Below, in pieces: positions 12,417-20,564 of a stretch of DNA of 64,000 bases (positions are counted from its first letter, which is position 1; each line of letters opens with the position of its first letter). A program made the translations under genes and the position numbers. This DNA comes from Candidatus Thorarchaeota archaeon (GTDB lineage: Archaea; Asgardarchaeota; Thorarchaeia; Thorarchaeales; Thorarchaeaceae). The stretch spans positions 1 through 64,000 of the forward strand of contig RDNZ01000004.1 in the NCBI GenBank assembly GCA_011364905.1, given 5' to 3'. A model generated the notes under the pieces. The model was not told the DNA's origin. It did no database searches and saw only the letters and a list, made by a program, of their open reading frames with translations.

Positions 12417-15187
12417 AATCCCTCCGTGTAGGGACCCGATTCAGTCCATGTGCTATTCAGTGCTTCACTCAAATCCACTCTAGAGCTAAGTAGTGCTATC
12501 AGAGAAATAAAGACGATTGTGCAGAGTATGAAGAACGATAGGATTATGCCCATTGGAAGCCACGGTGTCAGAATAGTGATTGGTGAGGGGTAGATATATG
12601 ACACGCCGCCGTAGGTTCGAACTGCAGAAAGAAGTGAATTCACTGATAAAATAGGCGTGAATAATCCAAGAAGTATAACGCTGACAAGCAGAAGAACTAG
12701 CATTTCTGATGTTTGCACTTTTATTATGAGATTCTTCTCGGCTCCTAAGGACCTGAGAAGTGCTATCTCTCGTTTCCTTGACTTAATCCCTTCGACAGCA
12801 TATACAACAAATGCTCCGAAGATTACGCCAATGCTGACGACTGTCATGAGCGTATCAGTTGAACGATCAAGACTATAGATGTCCTGGCCAGTATAGACCT
12901 CTACCTCAAGAAAGGCTGATGCCCACTCTTGATTCTTCAGAACATCCATCCAACCATTATTGAGGAACTCCTCAGCAGTTTGTATTGCACTAGATTGGTT
13001 TCCAACTCTCATACAAAACACAGTATCGATGTCCTGCACTTCTGAGAAAATTGTATCAACATCATCAATATTCACCCAGACTTTTCCTAGTCCAACTTTG
13101 TATGTCCATGGGGTTTCATAGTAGGAATCGTATTCGCTCTCAAATGTCAAGGTATCTGGAAGTGCTCCAACAACTCCGATAATACTGAACTCAAGTGCTT
13201 CAAGTTCAGTTGCATTCCTCCAGAATGCTCTTAGTATCCCTTCATTTGAAAGATCGTATTGCTCTGCGATGTCTTGCGTTATGATTGCGCCAAATTCCGT
13301 GATGGACAGTTGGTCCATTAAGGCGCTAAGCTTTGACTCATTTAGCTTGTTTCCAACAGAATCATACCCAACTCTAGAGTATTCTTCTGGATTTATGGCT
13401 ATGAAGTCGAATAGGCCCTCTGTACCCGTGGAGAGAGAGAGCGAAAGAATGTCAATCAAGGTTCCACTTGATGATGGTATGCTGTTTGTGAGATTGCCAA
13501 TAAAAGAATCCCATTGTGCTGATTCATCTGTATCGAGATGAAATGCCAAATCACCTCCTATGGCGAATCTTGATTGATTCAACCTCGTATAGGGTAAAGT
13601 TGCATCATTGATCGCACAATTCCAACCAAGACTCATCGCCAACACTAGTACAAGGATAAGTGGCCCGGATGAAGCCGTTGCTCTGCTTATTCTACGAATT
13701 CCAACCGACGCAGGTATATCTCCTACAATAATGCCGCAAACATTTGACAGTTTTATAGCTCCCCTCTTCAGTCCCTTCAATGCCAGACTTGTCATTGCAA
13801 AGAATAGTGTATAGGGTAACACGCCCAGAAGAGAGAAAAGAAACGGATTTTGTGTGATAACTGTACCTTCCATGTTAAAAGCAACAAGAAATGCCGCGCT
13901 AAGAGAAAGTATAGCCATATCCCATTTGATGAAACCCAAAGCTTTGGTCAGTTTGGCAACTCTACCACGCACATCTATGGCGGGGATTCTGAGAAGTCCT
14001 TTCAACTGATACATTACGAGAACCAGCAGCGGCAATCCTATTCCTGCGACTATCGAAAAGATCAGACTGTCGTAAGTAATTAGAAGTGGTTCTGTGAGTA
14101 GTTTCTGAGAATCAATCCGAAAGAATCCGTCTGACGCAAGAGCAAATCTACTAAATGCAATACCTATTGCAAAACCTGGAAGAATGGAAAGAATCGCCGT
14201 AGCAGTGATTTCGGTGTTAACTAAAATATTGACTCGGGTTTGCGAAGCACCCCTGGCGACTAACATACTTGTTTCGAATTCTCTCTCATTCCAGATATGA
14301 TTTATAGCCAAGTAGATGACGGCAAGTTCAAGGAGAACTATCCCACCGGTTCGAAAAACCTGAGATGTTCTGAGATCTGTAAGATACGCCATATAACTCT
14401 CAATGCTATCAGACAGCAAGTTGACTACGGAATATTGTGATGTATCGCTCCCCCGTGCATATGTTATATCCAGTCGTTTTATGTCTTCATCAATTCTGTT
14501 TAGGAATCGAAGAGCGCCCATAGGGTCATATGCCACGATTCTGCTTCTATCAACATCTGCATAGATGTAGCTTGAATCTGATGAATCGTGTTCCAATGTG
14601 TGAAATATCGCATTCGCTCGAGTATAGAAGAGTGAATTAGTGTAGCCACTTTCTCCATGCTTGAAGATACCTGAAACAATTGCGACTTGAGTTGACCCGA
14701 CAATGGGGGCCATATTAGAAAAGGAGTAATTGACTTGGTCTCCTAGCCCAACATAAAGTCGATATGCAATCAAAGTCGAAATGGCTACTTCTGAATCGTT
14801 TGTAGGAAAGTGTCCCTCAGTTAGAACAAAAACAGTTGGGAATGCTTCCAGGAATTCTTCATTGGATTCTATACCAAAGGTATTAGCTAGCCAAGTAAGA
14901 CCATAAGTATTCGAAACAAGGTAAGATGTTCTTCCCCGAAAGCTGGCAGCTTTCGTTATCCCTGCAATCTCTCTGAAGTTATTGATTTCGGAGTCAATGC
15001 CTCTTCCTGTTGCCACCAGAGATGCAGGGCCCACATCATTGCTGGATTTCCAATTCTCCATTGAATATGAATCAACATAGACCATGATGCTCCCCACGAT
15101 AGCTGATGAAAGCATGAAACAAAAGAGAGCAACTATCTTCCTTTGTCTACCTTCAAATGCTTCATAACCTGCAGGAGTCCTAACCAA
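12413..15187 (-). CDS. FtsX/MacB-like ABC transporter permease
   Basis: Motifs REFETSMLVARGAS, RKREIALLRSLGA and IGGDL. ATGA-coupled to the next permease. Confidence 0.85.
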   Translation of the reverse strand: MVRTPAGYEAFEGRQRKIVALFCFMLSSAIVGSIMVYVDSYSMENWKSSNDVGPASLVATGRGIDSEINNFREIAGITKAASFRGRTSYLVSNTYGLTWLANTFGIESNEEFLEAFPTVFVLTEGHFPTNDSEVAISTLIAYRLYVGLGDQVNYSFSNMAPIVGSTQVAIVSGIFKHGESGYTNSLFYTRANAIFHTLEHDSSDSSYIYADVDRSRIVAYDPMGALRFLNRIDEDIKRLDITYARGSDTSQYSVVNLLSDSIESYMAYLTDLRTSQVFRTGGIVLLELAVIYLAINHIWNEREFETSMLVARGASQTRVNILVNTEITATAILSILPGFAIGIAFSRFALASDGFFRIDSQKLLTEPLLITYDSLIFSIVAGIGLPLLVLVMYQLKGLLRIPAIDVRGRVAKLTKALGFIKWDMAILSLSAAFLVAFNMEGTVITQNPFLFSLLGVLPYTLFFAMTSLALKGLKRGAIKLSNVCGIIVGDIPASVGIRRISRATASSGPLILVLVLAMSLGWNCAINDATLPYTRLNQSRFAIGGDLAFHLDTDESAQWDSFIGNLTNSIPSSSGTLIDILSLSLSTGTEGLFDFIAINPEEYSRVGYDSVGNKLNESKLSALMDQLSITEFGAIITQDIAEQYDLSNEGILRAFWRNATELEALEFSIIGVVGALPDTLTFESEYDSYYETPWTYKVGLGKVWVNIDDVDTIFSEVQDIDTVFCMRVGNQSSAIQTAEEFLNNGWMDVLKNQEWASAFLEVEVYTGQDIYSLDRSTDTLMTVVSIGVIFGAFVVYAVEGIKSRKREIALLRSLGAEKNLIIKVQTSEMLVLLLVSVILLGLFTPILSVNSLLSAVRTYGGVSYIYPSPITILTPWLPMGIILSFFILCTIVFISLIALLSSRVDLSEALNSTWTESGPYTEGF

Positions 15188-15290
15188 TCCGAATCGCCCT
15201 TTCTCATTCTCGTGTTGAACAAATCTGTAGCAGCTGGCATCCTTCTAATAAACCGCACTTTTATAGCAGCAGCTGATAATCATCAAATTC

Positions 15291-16496
15291 ATGGAACTGA
15301 AAATAATCCCCTTCTTATCATCTGTTTCCCCTACGGGCGTAAGAGAGGAACTGCTTAAGGAATTCTCCTCGATCAGAGCAAGCGTGCTTGAACCTGCAGC
15401 CTACCAGCAAGAAACTACTACGGACAGAGTCATTCTCTTCATTGGCACAGGTGGAACTGAGAATGACGTTGCAGATTTCTTAAGCCAACATTCCTTAAAG
15501 CCCCCTATCATGCTTCTGAGCTATGACCTCCGCAATTCACTTCCAGCAGCTATGGAAATACGGTCATACCTTCAGCAGAATGGCATCGAATCAAGAATAG
15601 TATACTCCTCTTTTTCCGAATTGCTTCAGACAGTTTCGGAATGGAGTGAATTCGCAGATGTCCTCACAAATGTCAGCAGGAGTAGTATTGGCATCGTTGG
15701 AAAACCATCATCCTGGCTCATTGCTTCTGAAATCGATAAAGACAAGGTGGCAACACGATGGGGAGTAACCATACAGCAGTTATCATTAGACTCGCTCATT
15801 GAGTCAGTAAGGTCAATAAGCGATGCACCATCCGTCGAATCCTTCAAACAGTCCGCAACTTCTTGTTCGCCTACAGATGATGATGTCCGAAAAGCTGGAC
15901 TTGTCGCGGAATCAATGAGGAATCTTGTGCAAAGAGAAGATCTTGATGCGGTCACTGTTGAGTGTTTCAGTCTACTTATGGAAACCGGAGTCTCCGGTTG
16001 CTTCGCCCTGTCACTTCTTAATGACCTGAAAGAATCGACTGCGGGATGTGAAGGCGACATTCCAGCAACATTCACGATGATGCTGGGGCGGCTGCTCACC
16101 GGCCGGATAGGATTCATGGCCAATGTCACTCAAGTTGACGATGCGGACAATACTGCAGTCTTTGCCCATTGCACTCTTCCAACCTCATTGGCTGAGAGCT
16201 ATGAAATCACATCACATTTTGAAACTGGTTTGAGTATTGGTATACGGGGAACTCTGAAAAAACAGCCAGTAACTATCTTCAAGGTGTTTGGTGATGACCT
16301 CAGGGAGTACTGGGTTTCTAATGGTGAGATAGTAGAGAATCTGGTCAATGACACTGGTTGCAGAACACAGATCCGAGTCAAACTTGAAGAGGATGTAAAC
16401 TACTTCTTGGAACGGTCACTAGCGAATCATCATATAGTGTTCCCTGGCACTTATGCAGAGAAAATCCACAGATTCTTTTCGTTTGCTGCAGGATGA
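15291..16496 (+). CDS. L-fucose/L-arabinose isomerase-like family protein
   Basis: Motifs VTVECF, AGCEGDIP, FAHCT, CRTQI and LANHH. Confidence 0.75.
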   Translation: MELKIIPFLSSVSPTGVREELLKEFSSIRASVLEPAAYQQETTTDRVILFIGTGGTENDVADFLSQHSLKPPIMLLSYDLRNSLPAAMEIRSYLQQNGIESRIVYSSFSELLQTVSEWSEFADVLTNVSRSSIGIVGKPSSWLIASEIDKDKVATRWGVTIQQLSLDSLIESVRSISDAPSVESFKQSATSCSPTDDDVRKAGLVAESMRNLVQREDLDAVTVECFSLLMETGVSGCFALSLLNDLKESTAGCEGDIPATFTMMLGRLLTGRIGFMANVTQVDDADNTAVFAHCTLPTSLAESYEITSHFETGLSIGIRGTLKKQPVTIFKVFGDDLREYWVSNGEIVENLVNDTGCRTQIRVKLEEDVNYFLERSLANHHIVFPGTYAEKIHRFFSFAAG

Positions 16497-16714
16497 CTGG
16501 ATTCCCTCCAAGCAGGACTTTCTTGTCGAATGGAATCACATCAAAATATGTCATTGATCGCGTCTAATAAGGTCATACTGGTCTGAGTGAAAACATGGTT
16601 CTGAAAGGTTGGTCCCTTTCATTCTATCAGCTTAGACGGCGATTCTTCTCATCGAATTCCTCTAGACAATCTTTGCTACATGATGATGTGACAAACGATT
16701 TTGGGCTGACAAAG

Positions 16715-17467
16715 ATGCTACTTCCCCCTTTCCAGACCGCAGACAGAGTCCAGCGAATCATATGCAAAACTGGAACACCCACTTTAGACAGTCTACTCGA
16801 TGGAGGTTTCGAGGTGGGTCTTGTCTATCTATTCTATGGCTCTAGTCGGCTTCATGACATTCTGCTGAAAGCTGCTGTACACTCTCAATTACCTCCACGG
16901 AACGGTGGTTTCTCAAGCCCATCAATTATCATTGATAGTTCAAACATTGTGAATATAGTCAAACTCAGAGATTTCTCATTCGAACTCGGACTCGAACCCG
17001 AGAGTGTGATGGATATGATCTATGTTTCTCGAGCTTTCAACTCGAGCCAGACTTATGATCTGGTCATTAATCATCTTGATGAATTCCTTGAGAGGGTTCC
17101 AGCCAAGCTACTAGTCCTCCCAGGCCTTGTTGACCTCTTCATTAATGAGGGTCTAGACTCTGAAAGAACAAAGGATATGACGCATCTAGCCGCGAGAATC
17201 AATGCTTTCACTCTGAAGCACAATCTAATCACCTTGATATCTACCAGTCTCAAGAGTAGTCATGCTATGCATCCACCAGTCGGAACGACCTTGGCAAGCT
17301 CTGCTCAAGTTCACATTCACATTGAGGAAACACCAATGCGAACTGTGTATTCACTTACAAAGCATCCAAACCTGCCAAATCGAACTGAGTCCTCTGCGAA
17401 GCAGGGGTCTGCCTTTGGAGTGACACTCCCCCTTGATTACTTCTTCCGAGATACTTCTTCTACTTGA
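16715..17467 (+). CDS. RadA/RadB-like RecA-fold protein with degenerate Walker A
   Basis: TGTPTLDSLLDGGF and IYVSRAFN..Q are present but the GxxGxGKT P-loop is not. ATG 16715 preferred over 16595. Confidence 0.75.
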   Translation: MLLPPFQTADRVQRIICKTGTPTLDSLLDGGFEVGLVYLFYGSSRLHDILLKAAVHSQLPPRNGGFSSPSIIIDSSNIVNIVKLRDFSFELGLEPESVMDMIYVSRAFNSSQTYDLVINHLDEFLERVPAKLLVLPGLVDLFINEGLDSERTKDMTHLAARINAFTLKHNLITLISTSLKSSHAMHPPVGTTLASSAQVHIHIEETPMRTVYSLTKHPNLPNRTESSAKQGSAFGVTLPLDYFFRDTSST

Positions 17468-17566
17468 GTGACTTGACGAATCCTTGGACCACACTTTCGA
17501 GGAACGAGAATTACGTTTCGGTTTTGTTTACGTCTTTTGGGCATTATTGGCTAGAAGTTAGTGCAA

Positions 17567-18424
17567 TTACCAGTCTAGGTCTAGGTCAACGGAATCACTA
17601 TGAGTTTCATCCTTCATTTTTTCTCCTGAAACCTTTAACGGAATCTCTATTGAGGGATCAATTGCTAATCCAATCTCCATCACTACCTTCAGGACTAGCG
17701 AAGTCTTGATGAGTTTGGCCACAAACGGAGTCACTGTACCCCAATCAAAATGAACTGCTTCATCAATCCATCTGTCCCAATCACTGTCTGCAATTGGAAT
17801 TCGTTTGTCCGTAATGAGAACCTTCGAGTCTAGTTTGTTCCCTCTGCACACAACATCTTCTCGCCTATGAATTTCAACTCGAACACCCTTAATGCGTGGG
17901 CGTTCTCTTACGCAAACTCTAACATCAAAATCCCTATTTGGCCTGATGATGTCTGTTGGAAGTTCTACCAACAGTTGTTCCTTTTCTCTCCTTATTGGTT
18001 GCAATCCTGAGTCTGGTTCAGGAATGTATTGCGGTGGTCGTGTAGCCACAATGAGATTGGTCTTTGATTTCGTGTCTATTGCACGACTTATTTCTACGAC
18101 AGCTTCAACATCATATTGGATACTACCACGAAATCCGACGTGAGTTGGCGGAATACTCCCCGGGAGATTAAACTCAAAATCGAGTCTTGTATCCCCTAAG
18201 GAAACAACACCTTCCTCGTAGATGGTCATTTCTTTACTCAGAACTTCGTGTGTTTCACTCACATGCACCTTTCCCGCTTGGTAGTGAGTATATTCCTTAC
18301 CCTGGGCCTTCAATGTTATCCTATTACAGGTGAACTCCTTGTTTGTACTGACTAATGCGTACCCGCTTACCTGCTCGCCTGGGTAGTACTGGTCTCTCTC
18401 GGTATGTATTGATATTTGTCGCAT
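17567..18424 (-). CDS. Two-domain arrestin-fold protein (alpha-arrestin/Vps26-like)
   Basis: N domain: YYPGEQVSG...FEFNLPGSIPPTHVGFRGSIQYDVEAVV. C domain: LVELPTDIIRP...LIKTSLVLKVV...IEIPLKV. Start at ATG 18424 after GAGGAAG. Confidence 0.85.
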   Translation of the reverse strand: MRQISIHTERDQYYPGEQVSGYALVSTNKEFTCNRITLKAQGKEYTHYQAGKVHVSETHEVLSKEMTIYEEGVVSLGDTRLDFEFNLPGSIPPTHVGFRGSIQYDVEAVVEISRAIDTKSKTNLIVATRPPQYIPEPDSGLQPIRREKEQLLVELPTDIIRPNRDFDVRVCVRERPRIKGVRVEIHRREDVVCRGNKLDSKVLITDKRIPIADSDWDRWIDEAVHFDWGTVTPFVAKLIKTSLVLKVVMEIGLAIDPSIEIPLKVSGEKMKDETHSDSVDLDLDW

Positions 18425-18489
18425 GTCTTCCTCGACCGCCTGCCAATAATCATTACTACACAATCACAAATAGTGTTTTCTCAAAACAT

Positions 18490-19365
18490 TCAGTCGAAAC
18501 CAAGATCATACGCAATTGAATCAAAGATGTCATCGACGTCTTCATCCGGTTTTTCACCAGAAATCCTTACGGGAATATTCACAAACGGATCAATTTCCCA
18601 TCGCATCTCTAGTACAACCTTGAGAAAATATGTTGTAGCAATGAGTTTGGACTTAAATGGTACTCGACGCCACCCCTCTCCAACTATTTCTTCTTGCCAC
18701 TCATGAAAGTCGTCAGGCGAAAACGGAACGAATTTGCGCTTTAGTGTGACATCATGGGTGTCTTTACTGTTCCTACACTTGACGAACTCTTTTCTTCTTA
18801 CTTCGAAACGCACACCATTAATGCGTGAGTGTTCCTCAACCATGAAGCGAACTAGAATTCCCTTGTTTATTCTAAGTATATCGCTTTGGAGTTCTATATG
18901 GAGCTTATCCTTATCTTTGTTTATAGGGCTATATCCATCAACTTCTGGAATGTACTCGGGTTGAATTGGCAGAACTCTAAATCGTCGTGTCATCTTTGGA
19001 TCGAGGGTCCAGTCCATTTCAACAACTGCTTCAACGCTGTACTCAATCCAACCACAATAACCGGAATAGGTTGGTGGGAGACCCTCCTCCAGTCTGAATT
19101 TGAATGGAAACTCGCTTCTACCGCTGGAAACCTCTTGGGCCTCACATAGCACTATTCTTCCTTTAACAAGGACAACCTCATCCGTGATGCTATATTCTCC
19201 GCCTCCCAGCTCAGTCCTTTCCTTTCCTTTAATCTTCAGTACTACTCTATTACATTCGAATGCTTTGTCGGTATTAATAACGACAACTCCACTTATGATA
19301 CCTCCCGGACGAGCTTCTCGTTCAGAGAACTTGATGTCTACAAACCTCATCTGTGTTTCAGCCAC
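18490..19365 (-). CDS. Two-domain arrestin-fold protein (paralogue)
   Basis: N domain: PGGIISGVVVI...EFPFKFRLEEGLPPTYSGYCGWIEYSVEAVVEMDW. C domain: LIATTYFLKVV...VNIPVRI. Confidence 0.87.
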   Translation of the reverse strand: MAETQMRFVDIKFSEREARPGGIISGVVVINTDKAFECNRVVLKIKGKERTELGGGEYSITDEVVLVKGRIVLCEAQEVSSGRSEFPFKFRLEEGLPPTYSGYCGWIEYSVEAVVEMDWTLDPKMTRRFRVLPIQPEYIPEVDGYSPINKDKDKLHIELQSDILRINKGILVRFMVEEHSRINGVRFEVRRKEFVKCRNSKDTHDVTLKRKFVPFSPDDFHEWQEEIVGEGWRRVPFKSKLIATTYFLKVVLEMRWEIDPFVNIPVRISGEKPDEDVDDIFDSIAYDLGFD

Positions 19366-19422
19366 TGCTCATGTTTTCTCATGGGAACAAATATTCTTTT
19401 GCAGTAAAGAGCGGACTTAGTG

Positions 19423-20124
19423 TCACTCTGTGGCTAGTAGCATTTTCTCTCCCTGCGTAAACAAAACCTTTTGCGAGTCTGAGAAGGTCAAACCTATACC
19501 TCCGAGATATGGCTCGCGATCCCCTTGAACAAGAGGTCGATTGAAAAGCATCCGCTTCGCACTCATTAATGCGAGGTCATGTGTGACATGAATATGTATC
19601 ATGTTGCTTTTCGCTGAGTGAAGTCGTTGTATCGTGTCTGCCGTCAATCGATGTTGATAATCAACAAATGGTTCCATTTTTTCACCAAACAAGCCATCCG
19701 CCCAGGTGTTAACAAAATCTGTCACATTTTTGCCGTCTGGATGCAGGTTTTTCCAAACCTCACGTTCAATGACCTGTGGCCCAACAAGAGAGGCAAGAGC
19801 ATCGATATCCAACACTTCTCCTCCGCGTTGAGTGAATCCCTCAGCAATCGCCTCTGCTGTTTCAAAGCATCTTGGGACGAAACTGGTGTAGATTTGCATC
19901 TTCCCTTTGCGAGGTATCCGCTTCCCGAGTTCCAGTGCCATCTTCTTGCCTAACTCAGTTAATCCTCCACTCACCATTTCATCGTGATTCTGAATGGTTT
20001 CCCGGTGCGAGTGTCGAACAAGGAACATGACTGACTGGGACTGTGGAACTGTCGCCATCCACTCCAAAATCTTCTTGGCATTCTGAACCCATTCCTGATT
20101 CTCCCATGTATGTTTGTCAGTCAT
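19423..20124 (-). CDS. Histidine phosphatase family protein
   Basis: Motifs LVRHSHR, LTELG, TSFVPRCFETA and VTHD. Confidence 0.85.
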   Translation of the reverse strand: MTDKHTWENQEWVQNAKKILEWMATVPQSQSVMFLVRHSHRETIQNHDEMVSGGLTELGKKMALELGKRIPRKGKMQIYTSFVPRCFETAEAIAEGFTQRGGEVLDIDALASLVGPQVIEREVWKNLHPDGKNVTDFVNTWADGLFGEKMEPFVDYQHRLTADTIQRLHSAKSNMIHIHVTHDLALMSAKRMLFNRPLVQGDREPYLGGIGLTFSDSQKVLFTQGEKMLLATE

Positions 20125-20141: not shown

Positions 20142-20564
20142 TCAGAAATTCTCACGCACTCCAACCTGCACTGTCCTCTGACAACTAGGACATATTAAGT
20201 CTCCAGATCCTATCCATTCAACCATGCCTAGATCAAGCTTAGTCATGCAGTGAGGACAGTAGACTGGTATCACATAGACAGAGCCAGTTGATTGCTGGTC
20301 GTATGCGGGATAGGATGGTCGCACGTATGTCCGTCGGACCATTGTTTGGTCACTCGTATTTCCACCTCCCACCTTGACAGCTACCCAGATTAGAAGGAAG
20401 ATGAAGAACATCGCACCAAAGGTCCAACCAAAGATCGGTATTAGTATGGGCCATACATACTCTGCGATTCCAAGTGCCTCAAACATGATATAGAGCAAGA
20501 GGAACACTCCTCCGAAAACTATCATCATGATTATAGCAACTCTTGCACAGACATTGTCACTCAA
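20142..20564 (-). CDS. 2-TM membrane protein with Tyr/Pro/Ser-rich tail and C-terminal Zn ribbon
   Basis: Two hydrophobic helices and CPHC...CPSC. Confidence 0.75.
   Translation of the reverse strand: MSDNVCARVAIIMMIVFGGVFLLLYIMFEALGIAEYVWPILIPIFGWTFGAMFFIFLLIWVAVKVGGGNTSDQTMVRRTYVRPSYPAYDQQSTGSVYVIPVYCPHCMTKLDLGMVEWIGSGDLICPSCQRTVQVGVRENF

Follow-up and report, generated by a model that had tools for sequence, protein, structure and literature searches.

A tandem pair of two-lobed arrestins with conserved acidic-aromatic tails in Thorarchaeia

Two complete arrestins encoded side by side

The window analysed here, a 64,000-nucleotide stretch of contig RDNZ01000004.1 (assembly GCA_011364905.1), belongs to a Thorarchaeia metagenome-assembled genome (81% complete) and carries, adjacent on its minus strand, two open reading frames (17567-18463 and 18490-19365) that encode the arrestin paralogues A and B. 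Alignment with orthologues of 284-286 aa beginning MR... pointed to internal ATG codons as the likely true starts: paralogue A (285 aa, 17567..18424, minus strand) would begin at ATG 18424, in a frame that is open from TTG 18463, and paralogue B (286 aa, 18490..19350, minus strand) at ATG 19350, from which a gene caller may extend the frame to GTG 19365. Orthologues of B are 286 aa long and start with MRF, those of A measure 284-285 aa, and the two window proteins share 38% identity over their full length (E = 3e-63).

Both proteins pass the Pfam cut-off for Arrestin_N (24.9 bits), with 55.9 bits for A and 55.2 bits for B. Arrestin_C scores 45.5 bits in A, over two stretches of which the best one falls on the N lobe, and 27.2 bits in B, marginally below the cut-off of 27.7. 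The second lobe finds support in the AlphaFold2 model of B and in the full-length structural matches described below. The model of B (built with 21 orthologues; mean predicted local distance difference test, pLDDT, 88.5; predicted template modelling score 0.81) is all-beta and two-lobed, with strands running through residues 143-264 and, by DSSP, no helix that reaches 4 residues; that of A (pLDDT 66.2) has the same strand order and topology. The predicted second (C) beta-sandwich lobe and the short hinge correspond to the two-domain architecture of the arrestin clan (Pfam CL0135). It is thus near certain that A and B are complete two-lobed arrestins, i.e. soluble proteins of ~285 aa with Arrestin_N and Arrestin_C domains, devoid of helix I and ending in a short disordered tail, and the initial annotation, which had called them tandem full two-domain arrestins, was right in this respect.

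The Arrestin_N motifs quoted in that annotation are present and conserved among orthologues, as is the P.YIPE hinge common to A and B. The sharpest difference between the paralogues lies in a loop of A (residues 44-54, E-Y-T-H-Y-Q-A-G-K-x-H; pLDDT < 50) that is invariant in all 20 A-family sequences and in whose place B carries KERTExGSGD; we regard this loop as a putative client-binding site. Five further residues (E111, D117, R176, R181 and D254) are invariant in the family alignment and rank as polar-core candidates only. Prediction of an A+B complex from both family alignments gave a score of 0.00 in both runs, which speaks neither for nor against the heterodimer that had been suggested.

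A disordered tail with a conserved pattern

Both chains end in disordered acidic-aromatic tails (pLDDT < 50), comprising residues 271-285 of A (17570..17614, minus strand; ending in HSDSVDLDLDW) and residues 270-286 of B (18493..18543, minus strand; ending in DVDDIFDSIAYDLGFD). After an acidic stretch, the pattern [FL][DE]x[IL]xxD[LF]G[FW] (also given as FDSIxxDLGF/W) is conserved in the A family, in the B family and in a related clade of single-copy genes, and the terminal tryptophan of A (W285) is invariant in its family. More distant thorarchaeal paralogues have tails that are alike in character (e.g., DPFAFGFY, DDFSW, FGFEF, IFEWEKS). A terminus that is disordered yet conserved in sequence is a hallmark of a short linear binding motif, and the tails of A and B are therefore candidates for a partner-binding motif of this kind. 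The PPxY motif, noted earlier as missing from the window's tails, occurs in no A- or B-family tail; such strings are confined to folded parts of the proteins (LPPTY in the N lobe of B, and a PPQY hinge in A that is found in 8 of the 20 A-family members).

Relation to alpha-arrestins, Vps26 and Spo0M

We compared the B model with known structures in two ways. In a Foldseek search of the Protein Data Bank (PDB) the top matches were Vps26 chains of retromer structures (E = 3e-16, template modelling score, TM, 0.70-0.74), followed by VPS26C (E ~1.6e-15, TM 0.62), ARRD-6 and TXNIP, with beta-arrestins lower. Alignment to 48,161 chains with VIA-align placed ARRD-6 first (Z 19.1, 284 residues aligned, root-mean-square deviation 3.5), ahead of Vps26 (Z 18.7, 251 residues), VPS26C (Z 17.0, 261 residues), beta-arrestin (Z ~14) and Bacillus subtilis Spo0M (5CL2; Z 13.6), which aligned over just 122 residues, mostly of the N lobe. 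The family profile, run against PDB sequences, gave a similar picture: VPS26C (3.7e-8), ARRD-6 (5e-7) and ARRDC3 (4e-5) were matched well, TXNIP (0.009), beta-arrestin (0.025) and Spo0M (0.09) more weakly. An Atlas search returned TM 0.85 to an ARRDC3-like protein and 0.78 to Vps26. Of the Pfam hidden Markov models (HMMs), that of Vps26 (PF03643) matched neither A nor B with an E-value limit of 1, and that of Spo0M (PF07070) reached 19.4 bits in B (cut-off 23), with no match in A and a best score of 19 bits in the genome.

A and B are therefore nearer to alpha-arrestins and Vps26 than to Spo0M, and which of the first two is closest is not distinguishable: ARRD-6 scores structurally as high as Vps26, so the fold does not discriminate between them. 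The earlier judgement that the proteins resemble alpha-arrestins more than Spo0M agrees with the lengths and scores of the alignments and with the profile (ARRD-6 5e-7 vs 0.09), and the Foldseek comparison it had called for did recover Vps26, VPS26C, ARRD-6 and TXNIP. Vps26 and VPS26C, which it did not weigh, are at least as close. A paper of 2026 reported that no archaeal or bacterial protein is significantly similar in structure to VPS26C, using a 90% coverage filter (PMC13392464); the discrepancy with the match between our thorarchaeal model and VPS26C probably stems from search settings.

Each of the known groups shares part of its make-up with A and B. Alpha-arrestins (ARRDC3, TXNIP, Caenorhabditis elegans ARRD-6 and the yeast ARTs) have the two-lobed sandwich without helix I and a disordered C-terminal tail bearing a conserved short motif; however, their motif is PPxY rather than acidic-aromatic, they span 350-1000 aa instead of ~285 aa, and they work with WW/HECT ligases and ubiquitin, none of which was detected in the host genome of A and B. 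Vps26A/B of retromer and VPS26C of retriever have the same size and fold, but the Pfam Vps26 model fails to match A or B, the host genome holds no credible Vps35, and there is no evidence of a coat. Spo0M (PF07070; 5CL2) has in common the arrestin-clan N domain, the sub-threshold match in B and the database name 'sporulation protein' borne by orthologues, and is set apart by its below-cut-off HMM score, its short structural overlap and its profile E-value. The beta and visual arrestins share the two-lobe fold, whereas their helix I is absent from the B model, their superposition on B is poorer (TM 0.45-0.6, with higher root-mean-square deviation), and a counterpart of their long regulatory C-tail with clathrin/AP2 boxes is not apparent in A or B. 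The name 'sporulation protein', given to several orthologues by the NCBI pipeline, is misleading, as these are two-lobed arrestins whose scores against the Spo0M HMM do not rise above its threshold.

Duplication, distribution and earlier records

The gene order UvrA-UvrB, transmembrane zinc-ribbon protein, histidine phosphatase, B, A and RadB-like protein is kept in the same-genus loci L006-L011. In other species of the same GTDB genus (loci L012-L017) a single arrestin gene occupies this syntenic place, its product sharing 41-45% identity with B and 32-36% with A. A maximum-likelihood tree recovered an A clade (support 100/100), a B clade (100/99) and a single-copy clade (98/97), and united all three with full support (100/100); the grouping of the single-copy genes with B was weak (81/44). 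Since A, B and the syntenic single-copy genes thus form one strongly supported clade inside one genus, the pair appears to be the product of a recent tandem duplication within that genus, unless the single copy reflects a loss; duplication followed by loss and duplication followed by fast divergence of A would fit this tree equally.

Among 400 Asgard genomes the profile matched 85, of which 69 belong to the window's own family; other Asgard families gave weak matches only, and one large family gave none (0 of 135). Tandem arrays of 2-4 arrestins occur in several other genera and are independent at least in part, as exemplified by the pair in genome G337, whose members are sisters at 100/100. 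Each paralogue has ~40 intact orthologue clusters (50-93% identity). A deep profile search collected 2,725 cluster representatives when E was allowed to reach 1e-3; with E no higher than 1e-30, 52 were left. The archaeal host named at the outset is borne out by the close matches, all of which carry Thorarchaeota names; the labelled sequences among the strongest matches are from Thorarchaeota, one being labelled Lokiarchaeota at NCBI.

Beyond Asgard archaea, full-length relatives of ~280 aa were found in ANME-2/Methanosarcinales and in one bacterium, and longer relatives at similar E-values in Planctomycetales and Caenorhabditis, the two labelled eukaryotic matches being nematode double arrestins. 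Large Atlas clusters with Arrestin_N+C occur in Myxococcota (363 members), Armatimonadota (209) and Thermoplasmatota, with TM comparable to that of eukaryotic arrestins and Vps26. Because compact Arrestin_N+C proteins thus exist in bacteria and other archaea, the two-lobed fold is not a speciality of Asgard archaea and eukaryotes and is by itself no evidence of a eukaryote-like trait. Within the family scores exceed 400 bits, whereas the best labelled bacterial match reached ~87-91 bits, so that no bacterial sequence seems close enough to suggest a recent transfer into Thorarchaeia.

Arrestin-domain proteins have been listed among the eukaryotic signature proteins of Asgard archaea since 2017 (Zaremba-Niedzwiedzka et al. 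2017, as cited in 10.1101/2021.04.02.438162) and are mentioned in 10.1101/2025.11.06.686947. In the example of 2017, from Lokiarchaeote CR-4, the N and C domains lie on separate genes according to that citation, whereas A and B each hold both in one chain. Supplementary file 5 of Eme et al. 2023 (PMC10307638) has 149 Arrestin_N (PF00339) entries, among them AM326_10610 (P0046; 58% identical to A) and AM326_10615 (P0012; 68% identical to B) of Thorarchaeote SMTZ-45, together with AM326_08080, a 148-aa protein with the N domain only. Both the family and direct orthologues of A and B are hence already catalogued, and the pair is no new kind of protein. Descriptions of the complete fold with its two lobes, of a tandem duplication at genus level, of the tail's conservation or of the genes around the pair did not turn up in the literature searched; the new detail consists of the tandem duplication, the acidic-aromatic tail, the separate TATA-like boxes, the non-conserved 10-mer and the limits of the linkage to neighbouring genes.

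Two further arrestin-clan genes were seen outside the window. The window's own genome has a third, weak member, an open frame of 148 aa close to the end of a contig (G000:C76:8182-8562(+), locus L003; Arrestin_N 23.9 bits, Spo0M 18.8 bits), which equals AM326_08080 in length. In genome G311, of the same order as the window genome, L048:5580-7202(-) encodes a 540-aa arrestin with N and C domains (Arrestin_C 61.5 bits) and a C-terminal extension of ~250 aa that has no Pfam match.

Upstream signals

A TATA-like box precedes each gene on the minus strand. The AT-rich box of B (GCAAAAGAATATTTG, 19388..19402) lies ~40-55 nt before the ATG, where orthologous loci conserve GCAAAAGRATATTT, and comes after the stop codon of the phosphatase gene; most orthologues also have an oligo-T run before the box. 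That of A (GAGAAAACACTATTTG, 18467..18482) is located in the 65-nt spacer between B and A, reads GAAGAAAACCCTATTT in orthologues and has GARAAAACCCTATTT as its conserved form. From their conservation and position we infer that the boxes are promoters resembling the B recognition element/TATA type and, as each gene has its own conserved box, A and B could be transcribed independently.

The initial annotation had also pointed to a 10-mer, TGAGAAAACA, in both upstream regions. Its two minus-strand copies do exist, the first (18474-18483) overlapping the purine-rich part of A's TATA-like box and the second (19372..19381) falling between B's box and the ATG, and there is none elsewhere in the window; at least two copies appeared in 6 of 100 shuffles. 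We rejected it as a conserved regulatory site, for the exact word is missing from every orthologous upstream region examined (the B-side place holds loosely similar purine-rich stretches, such as GAGAAGAC and GAGATGAC) and the two copies are placed differently relative to the TATA-like boxes. A separate motif, AGTGGTYGG, stands ~10-22 nt 5' of the ATG in orthologues of A as well as of B (e.g., L006, L008, L009) and is degenerate in the window (19353-19368 and 18427-18445, minus strand). It may represent a variant ribosome-binding site or an element that the leaders share. Scans of the window for tRNAs and Rfam families gave no matches.

Neighbouring genes

Next to B, on the same strand, lie the genes of a His_Phos_1 phosphatase (19423-20124; 36 bits, with an intact RHS...H signature) and of a 140-aa protein that has hydrophobic segments near its N terminus and a zinc ribbon, CPHC...CPSC, at its C terminus (20142-20564), the transmembrane zinc-ribbon protein mentioned above. 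In an arrangement of this sort the zinc-ribbon protein could be receptor or cargo and the phosphatase the regulator of a phospho-regulated module with the two arrestins, in analogy to arrestin binding that depends on phosphorylation. All four genes are on one strand with short gaps in the window, both neighbours stay beside the arrestin(s) in every same-genus locus extending to this point (even in L013, where their order is swapped), and in another Asgard family (f4) arrestins are fused to zinc ribbons that belong to the same Pfam types (DZR, DUF7575). We nevertheless consider such a module highly doubtful: the UvrB/UvrA and RadB-like flanks are equally conserved, which looks like general collinearity; genes are inserted between phosphatase and arrestin in L009, L014, L015 and L017; arrestin paralogues at 17 loci of other genera have none of these neighbours; B has its own TATA-like box behind an oligo-T run following the phosphatase gene; and zinc ribbons are ubiquitous in archaea. 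For the same reasons (insertions, other genera and separate TATA-like box) an operon with the phosphatase and the zinc-ribbon protein found no support beyond close relatives and was set aside.

Between the arrestin gene and the RadB-like gene, L009 (7869-9527(+)) and the equivalent places of L012, L013, L015, L016 and L017 have a gene for a conserved 552-aa protein (MVRQI.LDFLF...), which is missing from the equivalent place in the window.

Arrestin-RING fusions in another Asgard family

In family f4 (G004:C1:2014000-2033999) three genes in tandem on the minus strand (L049:12881-14257, 14386-15786 and 16214-17545) encode proteins of 443-466 aa in which an arrestin is fused to a zinc ribbon and a C-terminal Prok-RING_1 domain. 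The latter, whose cut-off is 29.1, scores 31.1, 33.0 and 36.0 bits, and zf-RING_2 is near threshold. A fourth gene (L049:6276-7403, plus strand) encodes both the N and the C domain of an arrestin plus a zinc ribbon and passes the Vps26 cut-off of 27 (28.3 bits). The f4 genomes encode ubiquitin and the ubiquitin-conjugating enzyme E2; no ubiquitin genes lie beside the arrestin-RING cluster, whose neighbours (ferredoxin-type, nucleotidyltransferase and metallo-beta-lactamase proteins) are uninformative. No description of these fusions was found in the literature searched. They may be a hard-wired arrestin E3 adaptor, and they hint independently at a substrate-adaptor logic for some Asgard arrestins, which is not transferable to the ubiquitin-less Thorarchaeia.

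A putative adaptor role and its alternatives

We propose that A and B would act as cytosolic adaptors or scaffolds, as other arrestin-clan proteins do. The lobes and the central crest would bind client proteins, probably membrane proteins; the acidic-aromatic C-terminal tail would recruit a partner or effector, standing in for the PPxY of alpha-arrestins; and A and B would have come to differ in the clients they select. Since searches of the genome detected no ubiquitin and no E2, a ubiquitin ligase is probably not what the tail recruits, and our naming of ESCRT, or of another membrane-remodelling or regulatory factor, in its stead is a guess. In favour of the proposal we count the ~40 intact orthologue clusters of each paralogue, which indicate retention and selection, the expansion of the family, which would be typical of adaptor families, the tails that are disordered yet conserved, the separate TATA-like boxes and, from a sister lineage, the arrestin-RING fusions of f4. 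Identity and adaptor mechanism, taken together, we hold to have a slightly better than even chance of being correct; the mechanism on its own, drawn by analogy, is tentative and falls clearly short of that.

Several observations weigh against this proposal. In the 81%-complete genome neither ubiquitin (PF00240) nor E2 (PF00179) was detected, with the same searches positive in the f4 genomes; no WW domain and no match to the Vps26 HMM were found (in both cases the controls were unable to give a match there); and the best Vps35 (PF03635) match reached 18.1 bits against a cut-off of 35, in a genome of this completeness and with an HMM that divergent solenoids may escape. No reader of the tail motif was identified, and the linkage to the phosphatase and zinc-ribbon genes is limited to close relatives, so that the context names no partner. 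The A model is of medium confidence only, and the adaptor role of Asgard arrestins is extrapolated from eukaryotic members of the clan. Furthermore, organisms without endomembranes, bacterial as well as non-Asgard archaeal, have two-lobed arrestins too, which makes a non-trafficking role as plausible a priori. The phrase 'pre-eukaryotic cargo adaptors' of the initial annotation thus went further than the data: two-lobed Arrestin_N+C proteins are shared with bacteria and other archaea, and the canonical partners were not detected.

The breadth of the fold lends itself to the reading that A and B are generic prokaryotic arrestin/Spo0M-type regulators (e.g., a stress or cell-cycle scaffold) which eukaryotes later co-opted and which have no link to trafficking. 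It would account for the 'sporulation protein' names of several orthologues, the sub-threshold Spo0M match in B and the precomputed PF07070 matches in many orthologues, and it is in line with the Pfam Arrestin_N match in the B. subtilis control genome, with the nearest full-length non-thorarchaeal matches (ANME-2/Methanosarcinales and one bacterium), with the large clusters in Myxococcota, Armatimonadota and Thermoplasmatota, and with a profile that at E ~1e-20 reaches Planctomycetales and Caenorhabditis alike. Yet the Spo0M HMM stays below its cut-off in B and has no match in A, Spo0M aligns over 122 residues where Vps26 and ARRD-6 align over 251-284, and the profile favours VPS26C and alpha-arrestins by 5-7 orders of magnitude; moreover, the function of Spo0M is itself poorly known, so this reading predicts little. 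We consider it unlikely; if it were true, the thorarchaeal copies would say little on eukaryogenesis.

Two other readings are modelled on eukaryotic systems. In this genome no ubiquitin or E2 was detected and no Vps26 or Vps35 match exceeded its cut-off, and both the alpha-arrestin/ligase (ART-Rsp5) and the retromer readings therefore lack partners. That the proteins serve as Vps26-like components in a cargo-selective complex resembling retromer or retriever, the C lobe binding a Vps35-like solenoid, would agree with VPS26C as the best profile match (3.7e-8), with retromer Vps26 chains as the top Foldseek matches, with a length (~285 aa) equal to that of Vps26 and with the sparse Asgard homologues of Vps26, Vps29, Vps35 and Vps5 (Eme et al. 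2023, PMC10307638). We deem it improbable, given that Pfam Vps26 matches neither A, B nor any other protein of the genome, that the best Vps35 match is far below its cut-off (absence not being proven at 81% completeness) and that ARRD-6 is structurally as high as Vps26. The top structural Z-score of ARRD-6 and the Atlas match to an ARRDC3-like protein would in turn suit alpha-arrestin-like adaptors that hand membrane cargo over to a ubiquitin-type ligase so that ESCRT can sort it, which is the 'cargo adaptor' of the initial annotation taken in the strict ART-Rsp5 sense, as would the two Snf7/ESCRT-III genes of the host genome and the f4 fusions to Prok-RING_1 (31-36 bits) in ubiquitin- and E2-encoding genomes. 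But ubiquitin, E2 and WW domains went undetected in the host genome, the first two by searches that succeed in f4, and Thorarchaeota seemingly lack ubiquitin (Hatano et al. 2022, PMC9192718). The tails are without PPxY and neither A nor B is fused to a RING domain. We also looked for a RING-type ligase elsewhere in the genome and discarded the candidates, Prok-RING_1 scoring only 17-21 bits (cut-off 29.1) in unrelated ORFs. All told, the strict ART-Rsp5 reading appears very improbable.

A more far-reaching version of the adaptor proposal is that Thorarchaeia, the one Asgard class lacking ubiquitin, may have enlarged their set of arrestins to sort membrane proteins independently of ubiquitin, in a system whose lobes would pick clients and whose tail would directly recruit ESCRT, BAR-Vps28 or another membrane-remodelling factor. 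The recruitment of TSG101 by ARRDC1 offers a parallel for such a use of a tail. We put this forward as a speculation with little probability; were it true, arrestins would be an ancestral modular device for cargo selection that predates eukaryotes, the same adaptor having been wired to RING in a ubiquitin-bearing sister lineage.

Significance for the arrestin clan

In eukaryotes, the selection of membrane cargo falls to proteins of the arrestin clan (alpha- and beta-arrestins, Vps26), and archaeal relatives consequently bear on how trafficking began. Our analysis adds caution in this regard, since the fold is shared with bacteria and other archaea and the genome appears to be without the usual partners (the ubiquitin system and Vps35). 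At the same time, the conserved disordered tail of the thorarchaeal pair provides a concrete and testable candidate for partner binding.

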